Assembly: GCA_001001185.1 (NCBI GenBank)
Contig: LCKC01000007.1
Span: forward strand, 1-32,000
Length of the DNA: 32,000 nt
Reading direction: 5' to 3'
From: Parcubacteria group bacterium GW2011_GWB1_45_10
GTDB taxonomy: Bacteria; Patescibacteriota; Minisyncoccia; UBA6257; Brennerbacteraceae
Below the pieces are notes generated by a model. The model had not been told where the DNA came from and did no database searches. It worked only from the letters and a program-made list of their open reading frames with translations. The position numbers and the translations under genes were made by a program. Of the stretch, positions 21,367 through 26,885 are shown piece after piece; the first letter of the stretch is position 1; every line of letters starts with the position of its first letter.

Positions 21367-21963
21367 ATGTATACTCCTTCAGCTGAAGAAATAAAAAAAC
21401 TCCGCGAAGCGACTTTTGCGCCGATGATTCAGTGTAAAGAAGCGCTGGTTCAAAGCGAAGGCGATTTCAAAAAAGCGGTTTCCTGGCTTAATGAAAAAGG
21501 CCTGACCAAAGCCGCGAGCAAGTCTGAAAGAATCACCGGCGCCGGCGTGATTGATTCTTACATTCACAACGGCAGCCAGATCGGCGTCCTTTTGGACATT
21601 CGTTGCGAAACTGATTTTGTCGCCAAAACCGATGAGTTCAAAAAACTTTCGCATGACCTTTGCCTCCAGATTGCTTCAATGAACCCTTCCTGGGTGTCAA
21701 AAGAAGACGTTCCCGAAGAAACCATCAGCGTTCAAAAAGCCGGGTGGGAAAAAGAGCTGGTTGAGGCGAAAAAACCGAAAGAAATGTTTGATAAAATAAT
21801 TCAGGGAAAGCTTGAAGCTTTTTACAAAGAAAACTGCCTTTTGAATCAGGTTTTCATTAAAGACGAAGCCGGAACTTTGACTGTCGGCGAGCTGATTGCG
21901 CAAACCATCGCCAAAACCGGCGAAAACGTGAAAGTAGGGAAATTTGTGCGCTTTGCAATATGA
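21367..21963 (+). CDS. tsf: Elongation factor Ts
   Basis: The ATG at 21367 gives MYTPSAEEIKKLREATFAPMIQCKEAL, matching the EF-Ts UBA-like N-terminus. The listed TTG start at 21346 lies inside the heptamer repeat. Confidence 0.9.
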   Translation: MYTPSAEEIKKLREATFAPMIQCKEALVQSEGDFKKAVSWLNEKGLTKAASKSERITGAGVIDSYIHNGSQIGVLLDIRCETDFVAKTDEFKKLSHDLCLQIASMNPSWVSKEDVPEETISVQKAGWEKELVEAKKPKEMFDKIIQGKLEAFYKENCLLNQVFIKDEAGTLTVGELIAQTIAKTGENVKVGKFVRFAI

Positions 21964-22598
21964 TTTGGGAAATTCTCCCGTTGGTTTTAATCTTTATCGG
22001 CTTCGGCGGCGCGCTGCTTTTTTTGGTTAAAAAATCCGAAACCATCACTGACGACAAAGTAAACAAAACTTTTGAAAGAATCAGGCTCGTCAGGTTTTTG
22101 AAGTATTTTTACCGCGAAAGAGTCAAGCCGAAGTTTCAGTCAAAAGAGGTTGAGGAAAAATCTCTTTTGTTCCTTGAAAAAGCTTTGCGCTGGCTGAGGG
22201 TTGTGACTTTGAAAACCGACAACTGGCTGACGAAAAAAATCGAACAGACAAAAGAGCTGAGGGCGCGTCCGGAAACCGACCCGCTTTACTGGATTTCCGT
22301 TAGAATTGACGCGCTGGAAAAAAGAATTGAAGAAGTGCTGGCGAAAAACAAAAGCCCGAAATTTGATCCTTTGAAAGAAGAACTGAAGCTGATAAAAAAT
22401 AACAATGATTCTCTGGATGAGTGGCTGAAAATCGCCAAGTTTTATCTTGACAGCGGCAATTTGGCAGAGGCCAGAAGACTGATTGTCCGTTCCTGGACTG
22501 CCAGGCCGGGCGACGAAAAAACCCGGCTTTTGGTTGAAAGGTTTCATTTGAAAACCGAAGAAGATAAGCTAAAATCAGAGAGCCAGAAACAGAAGTGA
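21960..22598 (+). CDS. Hypothetical membrane-anchored protein (N-terminal TM helix, helical K/E-rich remainder)
   Basis: 212 aa; ATGA overlap with the tsf stop suggests translational coupling. No recognisable catalytic motif. Confidence 0.6.
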   Translation: MIWEILPLVLIFIGFGGALLFLVKKSETITDDKVNKTFERIRLVRFLKYFYRERVKPKFQSKEVEEKSLLFLEKALRWLRVVTLKTDNWLTKKIEQTKELRARPETDPLYWISVRIDALEKRIEEVLAKNKSPKFDPLKEELKLIKNNNDSLDEWLKIAKFYLDSGNLAEARRLIVRSWTARPGDEKTRLLVERFHLKTEEDKLKSESQKQK

Positions 22599-22853: not shown

Positions 22854-22881
22854 TTGACAATAGAAGAATAGGTGGTATAAT
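22854..22881 (+). promoter_or_regulatory. Near-consensus sigma70 promoter TTGACA-N16-TGgTATAAT
   Basis: TTGACA at 22854-22859; TG at 22873-22874; TATAAT at 22876-22881. Confidence 0.75.
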
Positions 22882-22887
22882 ATGATA

Positions 22888-23250
22888 TACAACTGATATA
22901 AAACATTACCCCCTGCTCCGTCAGCTGACGGATATGGACTGGTAAAAGTGGAGTCACGATCCATGACGTTGAGGGCCAAAATGCCCTACGGAAGCTGAAC
23001 CGTAAAACACAGCAAGCGGTGTCGTCCTTCGGCAAGCTCAGGATAAATTATCCTTCGATGAACCCAGGATAAATTAAGTTTGTACGAAGACACGCGGAGC
23101 CGACCAGAGAGCCATAATCTTTAATAGGATTGTGGAATGAGGATGGGACCGCGGGAGGTCTCTTTTTTCTTGTGGTGAACGTAGTTGAACCATAACCTCT
23201 CGTTCCTTGCTTGCTACTTTTGTAGTAATTGAGGAACGGGAGGTTTTTTT
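22888..23250 (+). ncRNA. Candidate T-box-type riboswitch leader (T-box sequence, antiterminator, terminator); 5' half unassigned
   Basis: AGGATGGGACCGCG (23140-23153) against the T-box consensus AGGGUGGNACCGCG. Antiterminator A1 is 23140-23143/23204-23207, the bulge is TGGGACC, and A2 is 23151-23158/23196-23203. The competing terminator is 23196-23206/23233-23243 plus T7. See the first finding. Confidence 0.65.
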
Positions 23251-23322
23251 ATTTACCCCGAGCGTAGTCGAAGGGTTTCCCGTAAAGGAGGAGCGATGCT
23301 TAAGATTCATCGCGCTTTCGGA

Positions 23323-23348
23323 GGGTCTGGTCCTCACAGACCAGACCC
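23323..23348 (+). other. 10-bp perfect hairpin in the 5' leader of tRNA-His
   Basis: GGGTCTGGTC (23323-23332), loop CTCACA, GACCAGACCC (23339-23348), 6 nt before tRNA-His. Confidence 0.7.
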
Positions 23349-23354
23349 AGAAAT

Positions 23355-23427
23355 GGTCCCTGTAGCTCAATGGCAGAGCGATCGCCTGTGAAGCGATTGG
23401 TTGCGGGTTCAAATCCCGTCAGGGACC
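23355..23427 (+). tRNA. tRNA-His (GUG) with genome-encoded G-1 and C73 discriminator, no encoded CCA
   Basis: G-1 at 23355. Acceptor GTCCCTG/CAGGGAC, D-arm GCTCAATGGCAGAGC, anticodon loop CTGTGAA, T-loop GGTTCAAATCC, C at 23427. Confidence 0.9.
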
Positions 23428-23433
23428 CAAGGC

Positions 23434-23567
23434 GAATGCAAAGGTCATTTTTTGCCGCCAAACTTCCCAGCGAGAAGTTCGGCTGATATTGCTCCTTGCT
23501 CGCCCTCGGCAAGCTCGGGCACCATGCCCGCTCGTCGCAAAATCGCCCAAAAACGATCTTTGCATTC
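23434..23567. repeat. 134-nt long imperfect palindrome element, same architecture as the 13539-13722 element
   Basis: Basal arms GAATGCAAAGGTC (23434-23446) / GATCTTTGCATTC (23555-23567), 13 bp with one G-U, extended by a T5/A5 segment. Internal GC-rich hairpins. Shares the core CCT(T)GCTCGCC with the secY-adk element. Confidence 0.8.
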
Positions 23568-23764
23568 TTGCCGATAATACTTATTAAGAAGGTATGAGCT
23601 ACAAAAACAAAAAACTGAAAAAGAGCAGATTTAATCAACTCAAAAGGTCGATTGGGTTGATTAAGATTGCTCTTTTGAAAAAAGTCAAAATTCTTTTGAG
23701 AATTCAAAAGATAATTCTCCCTGTCTTTCTCCAACTAAGATTTATGCCAAGAAAGGAGGCACCA

Positions 23765-24553
23765 ATGTTAATTACAGAAAGGGTCACGGAATTGATTTTG
23801 AGGGTTGATCGTTTAGAGGGCAACCCCGACAGAAACAAGATTGGTGAAATAGTGGAAAGCCTGATAAGCCAAGAAGGCTTGGTGCGTTTTCTGGTTTTTG
23901 TCTGTCCCAAGTTTGATACCGCGGCTTTGCTTTCCGGGAAGCCTGAATACTATATGCCAATTAAGGCCGCGGCAGGAGATCTGTTTGAACCAAGAATCGC
24001 GAAACTCCTGGAGCTTAAAGATAAATTGATGAGGCTCGGGTTGCCAGCTGAGATTAATCTGGTCATTGGAGATAATGATGCAGAAGAGTATATTTTTCCG
24101 TTTCTGAAGGACCGGAATGTTGATTTGGAAAAACTAAAAAGCAGGCAAACGCTTTATCGTTTAAGCTTTGAGCGTCGAACCGAAAATGTCTCACTGGGTA
24201 AAGTGTGTGCTTGGAGTTTGGCAGAGGAGGGAATTGGTCTGGATCAAGCAGAGCCGAAAATCCCAGCTGATGCTTTTGACAAAGAGTTGTGTTTCTTCAG
24301 GCGGTTGTTTTCAAAGGCCGGACCCTACAGAGGAAAGTTGGAATTTACGGAAGAAGAGTTGAGAGAAATGGTGGTTCTGAAATACAGGCTTTATGGCGCT
24401 CAGGGAAAATTCTTGAAAGAGCTTAATGGGATTCTGTTGCAGACAGAAGGGCCTGGAGTTTGGTTGGAAAGGACACAAATGTTGAGGTGCACTGGTTCTG
24501 AAGCAGTTCCCGCCGTCTACCCATGGATTCGAAAAGAAGAGAAGATGGGTTGA
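23765..24553 (+). CDS. Hypothetical protein, 263 aa, no recognisable family
   Basis: The in-frame ATG at 23765 is preceded by AAAGGAGG (GGAGG at 23755-23759). The listed start at 23594 adds a low-complexity K/L/I-rich extension across AT-rich palindromic DNA. A strong terminator follows the stop. Confidence 0.7.
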   Translation: MLITERVTELILRVDRLEGNPDRNKIGEIVESLISQEGLVRFLVFVCPKFDTAALLSGKPEYYMPIKAAAGDLFEPRIAKLLELKDKLMRLGLPAEINLVIGDNDAEEYIFPFLKDRNVDLEKLKSRQTLYRLSFERRTENVSLGKVCAWSLAEEGIGLDQAEPKIPADAFDKELCFFRRLFSKAGPYRGKLEFTEEELREMVVLKYRLYGAQGKFLKELNGILLQTEGPGVWLERTQMLRCTGSEAVPAVYPWIRKEEKMG

Positions 24554-24557
24554 AAAT

Positions 24558-24592
24558 AAAAACTCCCGCTTTTTCGCGGGAGTTTTTATTTT
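24558..24592 (+). terminator. Strong, potentially bidirectional rho-independent terminator
   Basis: AAAAACTCCCGC / GCGGGAGTTTTT 12-bp stem, flanked by an A-run and a T-run. Confidence 0.85.
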
Positions 24593-26150: not shown

Positions 26151-26276
26151 GGAGTTTTGGATCTTGGATTTATTTAGCCTTCAACTTTGTTCAGGCTAAC
26201 CCCGAGCCTGTCGAAGAGTTAGAAATTATCTCGCTACGCGAGATCTGGCACAGCCAGAGATATTAGCAATCAGGAA

Positions 26277-26885
26277 TTACCGACGCGATTGAATCGCGTT
26301 GGCCAAGGTGTCTTCGTCGGCAAACTCAACTTCCGCGCCTCTTGGCAAACCCAGGCCCAAGCGGGTGATTTTCAAATGCTTGAACTGGTTGAAGATTTTT
26401 TCCAGCTCCATGGCAGTCAAGTCGCCTTCGGCCGTGTGGCTCAGGGCCAAAATGACTTCCCCCAGGTTTTTGTCGTTTTGAATCCGTTGACTCAGTTCTT
26501 TCAGTCTGATTTCGTGGCCGTTTCTGCCTGTCGATGAAAACAAGCCGCCAAGAACAAAATAAAGACCCGGATATTTTTTGGTTTTTTCGATTGAGATTAA
26601 GTCTGTTTCTTTTTCAACAACCGCCAGGGTTGTTTTGTCCCGGTTCGGATTCCGGCAAATTGAGCAGGTTGTTGGTTGTTCTTGTCCTGAGCTTGCCGAA
26701 GGATCAAAAACAAAAAAACACTGTTTGCAGACGGAAACCTTGTCAGCCAGATCTTTCAAAGCCATGGAAAAAGCGTAAACGTCTCTTTTCAAAAACCAAA
26801 ACGCCAGCCGGTGCGCTTGGCGCGGCCCGATTCCCGGCACTTTGGAAAACAGCTCAATGAATTTTGTCAGCGGTCTTGGAAGCAC
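26277..26885 (-). CDS. recR: Recombination protein RecR
   Basis: 202 aa with GTG start. HhH VPGIGPRQAHRLAF, a C4 zinc finger CKQC...CSIC, and a Toprim region VVEKETDLISIE. Confidence 0.9.
   Translation of the reverse strand: MLPRPLTKFIELFSKVPGIGPRQAHRLAFWFLKRDVYAFSMALKDLADKVSVCKQCFFVFDPSASSGQEQPTTCSICRNPNRDKTTLAVVEKETDLISIEKTKKYPGLYFVLGGLFSSTGRNGHEIRLKELSQRIQNDKNLGEVILALSHTAEGDLTAMELEKIFNQFKHLKITRLGLGLPRGAEVEFADEDTLANAIQSRR

Follow-up and report, generated by a model that had tools for sequence, protein, structure and literature searches.

Riboswitches of the T-box type (Rfam RF00230) are characterized by a 14-mer T-box sequence, a 7-nucleotide (nt) UGGN bulge, a codon offered to the anticodon of a tRNA and an antiterminator that competes with an intrinsic terminator. 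In our literature searches no precedent was found for T-boxes in Patescibacteria (Candidate Phyla Radiation, CPR), nor for T-boxes upstream of tRNA genes, and the searched passages of TBDB (PMC7778990) and of Wels et al. (PMC2494555) list no tRNA genes among T-box targets. Here, we describe a unit of Parcubacteria group bacterium GW2011_GWB1_45_10 in which a leader of this type precedes a micro-open reading frame (micro-ORF), a tRNA-His gene and the gene of a protein termed X or X(His). It lies in the first 32,000 nt of contig LCKC01000007.1, and this whole stretch is called the window. All of the features named above are present in its leader, which departs from RF00230 in its Stem I, a hairpin of only 4 bp whose 7-nt loop holds the specifier and which has no distal platform; furthermore, the unit includes the gene of the ligand's own tRNA, and its host belongs to the Patescibacteria (CPR). 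It is well supported that the unit is conserved and responds to the charging of tRNA-His; it would express tRNA-His jointly with a micropeptide and X and, in many loci, with histidyl-tRNA synthetase (HisRS). The tie of its regulation to histidine and tRNA-His is well supported, too, and the layout suggests one transcript over T-box leader, micro-ORF, tRNA-His and X. Riboswitch and protein fold are of known kinds; new are the reduced T-box class, the order T-box, tRNA, X, aminoacyl-tRNA synthetase (aaRS), the X families and the micropeptide.

The leader is composed of the following elements (L numbers denote homologous loci):

22854 to 22881, plus strand: sigma-70-type promoter, TTGACA, 16-nt spacer, TG, TATAAT, 12 of 12 matches
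22888 to 23252, plus strand: reduced T-box(His) leader, alignable with the leaders of L040, L041, L042, L043 and L046
22949 to 22963, plus strand: ultrashort Stem I hairpin UGGA-GUCACGA-UCCA, read from the sequence and from locus comparison
23025 to 23076, plus strand: about 52 nt inserted in the leader, a 26-nt unit (TCCTTCGGCAAGCTCAGGATAAATTA) present twice in tandem
23140 to 23153, plus strand: T-box 14-mer AGGAUGGGACCGCG, in agreement with the consensus at 13 of 14 positions
23194 to 23252, plus strand: intrinsic terminator of the T-box (hairpin 23194-23245), long stem of -33.4 kcal/mol followed by U7

The 14-mer was compared with AGGGUGGNACCGCG, which we take to be the T-box consensus. 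Its 7-nt bulge UGGGACC (23144-23150) is part of a two-helix antiterminator, whose pairings, as read from the sequence, are a 4-bp helix A1 (23140-23143 with 23204-23207) and an 8-bp helix A2 (23151-23158 with 23196-23203). Antiterminator and terminator are mutually exclusive, because the 3' strand of the former is the 5' arm of the latter. The small hairpin 23145-23162, which the initial annotation had taken for the terminator, lies in the antiterminator; the real terminator is the hairpin at 23194-23245. The His specifier CAC occupies 22955-22957 in the 7-nt hairpin loop GUCACGA, and this loop with its CAC is invariant in the window, L040, L041, L043 and L046. The reduced stem covaries, with UGGA/UCCA in the window, GUGGA/UCCAC in L043, CUAGA/UCUAG in L046 and GGU/ACC in L041. 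Together with L042 these loci make up the reduced class, in which the Stem I hairpin has 3-5 bp. A full Stem I with K-turn, AG bulge and distal platform was not found in the window leader, which has no distal Stem I, and at the gathering threshold Rfam yields tRNAs alone for the window. T-boxes with an ultrashort Stem I have reportedly been described in actinobacterial ileS leaders (by Sherwood et al. in 2015). Full T-boxes precede the unit in other homologous loci, with RF00230 scores of 92.7 (L009), 73.2 (L020), 67.4 (L001), 56.3 (L012/L027), 52.7 (L031), 47.6 (L016) and 46.6 bits (L008) and E-values of 2e-19 to about 2e-7; L047 is also of the full type. All of the full T-boxes carry a GAA-CAC-A/G specifier and a UGGG or UGGA bulge. 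With respect to these features we regard the window leader as a reduced yet genuine histidine T-box, which is predicted to bind tRNA-His.

The insertion of about 52 nt is missing from the other reduced leaders, and a related copy is found at 23502-23527. As a separate observation, the short repeat CTTCGGCAAGCTCAGG is dispersed over the window, with 8 matches (up to 3 mismatches) against 0.55 expected. Its sites include 23025-23076 (the tandem pair in the leader), 23502-23527 (within a 134-nt palindrome described below) and, on the minus strand, 26686-26701 and 26201-26216; an exact copy lies in recR on the minus strand.

A promoter of its own for the genes behind the T-box had been named as an outcome that would speak against control by the leader. 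Between 23252 and the ORF no strong promoter was found, the best candidate (23675-23703, 9 of 12 matches) being located within coding sequence. In L009, L047, L012/L027 and L045 (the latter two with tRNA-Trp) the tRNA begins only 4-21 nt past the U-run of the terminator, which leaves no room for a separate promoter at the tRNA.

That the unit responds to tRNA-His, and that X has a role related to histidine or tRNA, had been proposed from the window and is supported by the homologues, which usually stand directly behind tRNA-His and repeatedly beside hisS. Down to 21% identity, they are nearly always found behind a His T-box or a leader peptide with His codons. tRNA-His lies directly 5' of X on the same strand in about 20 loci, and 12 non-redundant loci carry a His T-box. 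Canonical hisS is adjacent or close in six loci. It shares a gene string with X in three of them, where the order is T-box, tRNA-His, X, hisS, EamA in L043, T-box, X1, X2, hisS, EamA in L046 and T-box, tRNA-His, X, small ORF, micropeptide, hisS in L009. In L035/L036 (one locus, represented in two sources) and in L037 hisS is near X, though not in one string, and within the 32,000 nt of the window it is absent. Canonical HisRS coexists with X, and on this ground X was rejected as the sole HisRS. In loci without a T-box, short leader ORFs with tandem or close His codons are followed by a terminator. Five unrelated leader sequences of this kind were observed:

L003, 3682 to 3762: His-codon leader ORF with NHSHH, MENIFSQNHSHHMPQF...
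L007, 1671 to 1760: His-codon leader ORF with ...QNHNHNN...
L004, 282 to 362: His-codon leader ORF with ...ATNSHHY...
L005, 3598 to 3645: His-codon leader ORF, MNKFG(R/K)KFNHH..., common to L005, L006, L019 and L023
L014, 1418 to 1468: His-codon leader ORF with ...SQVHHINLF

These leaders are candidate ribosome-mediated histidine attenuators, and in L005 the 1:2, 2:3 and 3:4 pairings typical of such attenuation appear to be readable. The occurrence of two independent sensors of His-tRNA charging in front of the same genes is strong evidence for a response to histidine limitation.

Behind the T-box terminator, the unit continues as follows:

23255 to 23275: GC-rich box ACCCCGAGCGTAGTCGAAGGG, single copy in the window
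23260 to 23274, plus strand: box GAGCGTAGTCGAAGG, single copy in the window, at the same post-terminator place in L040
23284 to 23391, plus strand: Shine-Dalgarno sequence AAAGGAGG (23284-23291) and micro-ORF MLKIHRAFGGSGPH... with ATG at 23296
23323 to 23348, plus strand: perfect 10-bp hairpin (23323-23332 with 23339-23348) directly 5' of the tRNA, dG -20.4
23355 to 23428, plus strand: tRNA-His(GUG) with encoded G-1 and discriminator C73, CCA end partly encoded
23434 to 23567, plus strand: palindromic element of 134 nt, inserted 3' of the tRNA and 5' of the ATGAGCTAC start
23594 to 23764, plus strand: in-frame Lys/Arg-rich N-terminal extension of X, MSYKNKKLKKSRF..., 57 aa, pI 11.9
23750 to 23757, plus strand: internal Shine-Dalgarno sequence AAAGGAGG, kept 5-8 nt before ATG or GTG in homologues
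23765 to 24553, plus strand: core of X(His), 262 aa and stop, 263 codons
24563 to 24594, plus strand: intrinsic terminator closing the operon, CTCCCGC-N6-GCGGGAG and T-run

Most of these elements had been listed before: the AAAGGAGG site with a 31-codon ORF that runs into the tRNA, the 10-bp hairpin, the tRNA-His with its encoded G-1 and the 134-nt palindrome were all recovered, at the positions given or a few bases away. The GC-rich element, which had been given as a repeat at 23264-23284, is really a single-copy box at 23255-23275. A box of the form GAGCG(T/A)AGTCGAAGG stands directly past the T-box terminator in the window (23260-23274) and in L040 (1347-1361), the X proteins of the two being 29% identical.

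The micro-ORF spans 31 codons (23296-23391) and ends within the tRNA; its conserved part stops at His14 (23335-23337), whose codon lies in the loop of the 10-bp hairpin. A hairpin is found at the same pre-tRNA position in most loci read. The motif [H]R.FGG.G[P/S]H was detected in more than 20 loci, always on the operon strand. The micro-ORF lies 5' of tRNA-His in the window, L001, L003-L007, L014, L016, L019-L021, L023 and L039, and just 3' of X in L008, L009, L012/L027, L022, L029 and L031. Among its 17 distinct nucleotide versions the amino acids are kept and the third codon positions are saturated: Arg is encoded by all six codons, each Gly by all four, and Ser alternates between TCN and AGY. 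Residues past the final His are unconserved, and in L031 the ORF stops right after ...GPH. Judged by this comparison of sequences, the micro-ORF is in all probability a real conserved peptide gene. The subfamilies of L040, L041, L043, L046 and L047 are devoid of it. In the window (23296-23391), L001, L004, L005, L014 and L019 no stop codon precedes the tRNA, so that RNase P cleavage would leave a non-stop message. Genes for transfer-messenger RNA (tmRNA) were noticed near the homologous loci L003 and L007. Furthermore, L042 has a different, His/Trp-rich micro-ORF (305-370, MADWLQSWLKMHGHWLHGVWG) with a strong Shine-Dalgarno sequence between tRNA-His and X.

The body of the tRNA-His extends over 23356-23428, and G-1 at 23355 pairs with C73 at 23427. 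Wherever the 5' flank of a tRNA-His gene was read, the gene encodes G-1, and a Thg1-like addition of G-1 was therefore rejected. X has no Thg1 match in Pfam, and Thg1 motifs had been reported as absent. The 134-nt palindrome has 24-nt arms, which are 83% complementary, and folds with z = -3.4. It is part of a 164-nt spacer between tRNA-His and the MSYK ATG (23594) in the window and is lacking in L003 and L007, where this ATG abuts the 3' end of tRNA-His (4000/4001 and 2020/2022, respectively); in these two loci 3' processing of the tRNA would leave an mRNA almost without a leader. Insertions of about 140-330 nt behind tRNA-His were noted in L001 (3861-4000), L006 (3666-4000) and L020 (about 2684-2823). 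All three end in a duplicated tRNA 3' end (att-like), and those of L001 and L020 share sequence (translated GGVAKSASDGELI.VTKSR.GP), which suggests a small mobile element targeting tRNA-His. In L031, a sequence resembling tRNA-His stands between the T-box(His) terminator and X (2797-2918); its 5' and 3' ends are normal, and its middle is replaced by about 60 nt. ARAGORN makes no call on it, and the tRNA may be disrupted, degenerate or interrupted by an intron.

For protein X, the 263-codon ORF, its AAAGGAGG site and the strong terminator stand as first annotated, but the frame is already open from ATG 23594, giving 319 aa. The GenBank annotation is also of 319 aa, and the 90%-identity cluster of the ORF product contains KKT85967.1, a 319-aa 'hypothetical protein' of Parcubacteria group bacterium GW2011_GWC1_45_9. 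An upstream ATG with a stop-free, Lys/Arg-rich extension of 50-70 codons is found in 18 main-clade loci with the region complete (window included), opening with MSY(K/Q/A)..., typically MSYKKKKLKKS.... Since a Shine-Dalgarno sequence and an ATG or GTG are also kept at the start of the core, two isoforms of X(His) are plausible. The TTTTGA/TCAAAA repeats exist (TCTTTTGA/TCAAAAGA at 23692-23711, related repeats at 23664-23718). Their operator-like reading was rejected, because they lie within the conserved coding extension and, among the loci compared, recur only in the 91%-identical L013. The same extension contains an inverted repeat with 25-nt arms (23619-23676), which shows one synonymous compensatory change relative to L013 (CAAC/GTTG to CAGC/GCTG) and is not clearly kept in distant loci; it may be an RNA structure that overlaps the coding sequence.

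The description of X as an orphan did not hold, since at least 82 relatives at 43-100% identity were found, all unnamed or hypothetical, the named ones coming from Parcubacteria, WWE3 or Patescibacteria. An exhaustive profile search resulted in 120 cluster representatives, many of which reach 360-645 aa and carry the domain C-terminally. Membership in a housekeeping family, which had been set out as grounds for dismissal, was not observed: X has no match in Pfam, NCBIfam, PADLOC or PHROGs, and sequence and profile searches against the PDB gave noise only. In L040 (1451-3686), L041 (460-2009) and L046 (5001-6703) tandem overlapping paralogues, X1 (FTCP) and X2 (FTCS), were observed. Both have the cysteine discussed below, the X1 proteins are about 450 aa long with an uncharacterised N-terminal domain of about 180 aa, and the arrangement suggests an X1-X2 heterodimer.

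The AlphaFold2 model of X(His), which was built from 74 sequences, reached a pLDDT of 94 and a pTM of 0.90. By Foldseek, the predicted structure has the Rossmann fold of class I aaRS. Catalytic domains of TyrRS were matched with E 2e-5 to 1e-3, probability 1.0 and template modelling (TM) scores of 0.36-0.46 (best match 6bqy, E 2e-5), the isonitrile synthases PvcA/PIsnA with TM 0.46-0.48 and cyclodipeptide synthases (CDPS) of the PDB with E 5e-3 and TM of about 0.35. In the viral library of Foldseek, the top match was a cyclodileucine synthase (E 1.3e-3), with another CDPS on rank 4 and TrpRS on rank 5. The statement that X lacks aaRS motifs proved right for HIGH and KMSKS, neither of which occurs in the alignments of X, yet the predicted fold is that of a class-Ic aaRS. 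X has no tRNA-synt Pfam match, no anticodon-binding domain and no match to the Pfam domain DIT1_PvcA. In 24 aligned sequences down to 21% identity, Cys47 (codon 23903-23905) is the sole invariant residue, and Cys47-Pro48 follows strand 40-46, i.e. the end of strand 1. Near-invariant are G102, D103, D105, Y109, R127, K206, Y210, Q213, G214, E228, P230 and Y252, and the conserved motifs are GDNDAE and LLQTEGP...YPWIR. In solved CDPS sequences the catalytic serine (Ser37) is part of GIS-PFNS, and X has VC-PKFNT. According to the structural model, X(His) represents an enzyme family so far without annotation, for which a fold like that of tRNA synthetases is predicted and a covalent mechanism is probable.

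A parallel system exists for tryptophan. In two genomes (L012/L027 and L045) a T-box(Trp) with the bulge UGGC is followed by tRNA-Trp, a 275-277-aa protein and TrpRS, the tRNA starting 7-9 nt past the U-run of the terminator:

L012, 4937 to 7264; L027, 2145 to 2893; L045, 4560 to 6941: T-box(Trp), tRNA-Trp, X(Trp), trpS

The X(Trp) family has nine members. In hhalign it was aligned with X(His) at E 2e-4 and a probability of 46%. Cys47 is thereby paired with the Ser of an ASP motif, GDxD with DIDxE and YAxQG...ILLQ with YAALG...ILLD. The AlphaFold model of X(Trp) (pLDDT 88) has the same Foldseek neighbours as X(His), namely PIsnA, PvcA and TyrRS. X(Trp) is probably another unannotated enzyme family of the kind seen in X(His); homology of the two is probable, not proven.

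On balance, we consider it rather likely that the unit is induced by histidine starvation and that X(His) is an enzyme derived from class-Ic aaRS which handles tRNA-His via an acyl-Cys47. In such a mechanism, the strong promoter would drive the reduced T-box, and the CAC specifier and the UGGG bulge would bind uncharged tRNA-His. Binding would stabilise the antiterminator, leading to readthrough of the terminator (23194-23252) into a transcript that would encode, in this order, the translated micropeptide (HRxFGGxGPH), tRNA-His and X(His); tRNA-His would be released by RNase P and 3' processing. The T-box would read the ratio of charged to uncharged tRNA, and extra tRNA-His made at a low ratio would raise the absolute amount of His-tRNA, resulting in compensation and not in a runaway loop. 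X(His) appears to have lost the ATP motifs HIGH and KMSKS and to have kept GDxD, which resembles the GxDQ of TyrRS/TrpRS, with the invariant Cys-Pro ending strand 1. It would most likely bind the histidyl group or the 3' end of tRNA-His, work through a covalent histidyl-Cys47 intermediate in the manner of a CDPS and act beside HisRS in the homeostasis of His-tRNA-His. We infer the tRNA substrate and the acyl-enzyme chemistry; a tRNA-handling acyl-enzyme is favored by the predicted fold, the missing ATP motifs, the invariance of Cys-Pro, the basic N-terminal extension and the location of X genes beside those of tRNA and aaRS.

Several findings weigh against this assignment. The window leader scores 13.2 bits with RF00230 at a gathering threshold of 93. 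The structural likeness of X is modest (TM 0.43-0.48), and hhalign of X against three solved CDPS sequences was not significant (E 0.36), with no Pfam CDPS match, so that the likeness of VC-PKFNT to the CDPS nucleophile motif is to be read as a resemblance only. The family is found in only a subset of CPR genomes, and X is consequently not essential for the function of tRNA-His. Oddly, an enzyme that consumes His-tRNA would be induced by starvation. Moreover, a distant clade (L035/L036, L037 and L038) has neither T-box nor adjacent tRNA-His nor micropeptide. Its X genes are neighbored by GNAT and by an M20 deacylase of the ArgE/DapE type, with hutH and hisS in L035/L036 and L037 and hutU in L035/L036, and these neighbors point to the metabolism of free histidine rather than to tRNA. 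They match the main competing explanation, which we regard as possible and clearly less likely than the acyl-enzyme: X(His) would be a hydrolase or salvage enzyme that is specific for histidine, has Cys as its nucleophile and makes no contact with tRNA, freeing His from an imported conjugate such as a peptide, an N-acyl-histidine or an ester, and the linkage to tRNA-His and hisS would reflect a shared regulon only. Induction of supply genes by starvation agrees with T-box logic, an EamA-family transporter is encoded in the operons of L043 and L046, and PvcA and PIsnA, to which X is similar in fold, have free amino acids as ligands. However, Lys/Arg-rich extensions such as that of X (pI 11.9) are typical of RNA-binding appendages, in about 20 loci the tRNA is followed directly by X, the genes of the parallel Trp family stand between tRNA-Trp and trpS, and no hydrolase fold was matched.

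It is rather doubtful that X(His) and the micropeptide form a system resembling those of ribosomally synthesised and post-translationally modified peptides (RiPP) or of CDPS, in which His-tRNA-His would modify or extend the peptide or a His-containing starvation signal would be made. Within the main clade, the micro-ORF and X are closely conserved together across two gene orders, X has the CDPS-like fold and nucleophile motif, and the L031 peptide ends exactly at ...GPH. Nevertheless, X occurs without the micropeptide in L040, L041, L043, L046 and L047, many micro-ORFs have no stop before the tRNA, and a consumer of His-tRNA that is induced by shortage of His-tRNA is counter-intuitive. Besides, CPR genomes are tiny and have few secondary-metabolism genes, which generally disfavors such a system. 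An alternative or backup ATP-dependent histidyl-tRNA synthetase of class I type could be read from the class-Ic aaRS-like fold as well as from T-box control and the place beside the cognate tRNA, which are typical of aaRS genes. This is very unlikely, considering that X has no HIGH, KMSKS or anticodon-binding domain and that canonical class-II hisS lies in the same operon or neighborhood. We give just as little credence to X as a non-catalytic cofactor or regulator that binds tRNA-His, for instance in delivering tRNA to HisRS or as a charging sensor. Such a role would agree with co-expression with hisS and tRNA-His and with the basic N-terminal extension; enzymes of class Ic form dimers, and X1-X2 occur as paralogues in tandem. 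But the pocket-like motifs (Cys-Pro, GDxD, QTE.P, YPW) are kept down to 21% identity, which argues for catalysis.

Taking the acyl-enzyme further, X(His) and X(Trp) might together be an unrecognised, aaRS-derived superfamily of amino-acid-specific proteins with a Cys or Ser nucleophile, encoded in CPR operons of the order T-box, tRNA, X, aaRS and carrying out a new tRNA-linked starvation reaction; we put this forward tentatively, as an idea with a limited chance of being right. If true, the reaction could be an ATP-independent transfer of His between a scavenged donor (peptide or ester) and tRNA-His via a thioester, or a starvation signal could be made from His-tRNA with the HRxFGGxGPH micropeptide as a partner. 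A T-box governing the gene of its own tRNA ligand recurs for two amino acids, His and Trp, and the predicted expression of X alongside its tRNA and the matching synthetase points to a new step of aminoacyl-tRNA homeostasis in organisms that depend on amino acids scavenged from hosts. For structural work, the reduced T-box provides a natural minimal variant that presents its specifier in a hairpin loop of 7 nt, and the 10-residue peptide motif, which is retained at saturation of synonymous changes, is a candidate for a functional micropeptide. All parts are short and can be tested in vitro. Elsewhere, the window encodes ribosomal proteins, S2, EF-Ts, L21, RecR, DnaB, CysRS and CorA; a 212-aa ORF between EF-Ts and tRNA-Tyr (21960-22598) has no Pfam match.

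With respect to described systems, the loci without a T-box resemble the enterobacterial his operon in that a leader ORF with His codons is followed by a terminator. The leaders of the homologous loci differ in having two or three His codons and in controlling tRNA, micropeptide and X instead of biosynthetic genes, and no such attenuator is present in the window. On the protein side, TyrRS/TrpRS of class Ic are the best fold match of X. As read without superposition, GDNDAE of X is at the place of GxDQ and LLQTEGPGVWLERT at that of the strand and KMSKS loop; X differs by the absence of HIGH, KMSKS and the anticodon-binding domain and by TM scores of just 0.36-0.46. PvcA/IsnA (3e59, 9dh4) gave the highest TM scores for X(His) and the top matches for X(Trp). 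Their ligands are aromatic amino acids, with no tRNA involved, and X is only 11-13% identical to them, with no partner genes of the isonitrile pathway nearby. The cyclodipeptide synthases (YvmC 3oqh, AlbC 3oqv) differ from X in their nucleophile, a Ser where X has the putative nucleophile Cys, and in the genomic setting, the X gene being part of a housekeeping T-box operon with hisS and not of a biosynthetic cluster. In common, both have a similar size, a Rossmann fold derived from class-Ic aaRS (predicted for X) without HIGH and KMSKS and a Tyr-containing C-terminal motif (AYHRPW in CDPS, IYPWIR in X), and the CDPS, like X, are tied to a specific tRNA. The Cys-Pro that closes the first strand of X (VC-PKFNT) may correspond to the nucleophile-Pro pair of the CDPS (GIS-PFNS).

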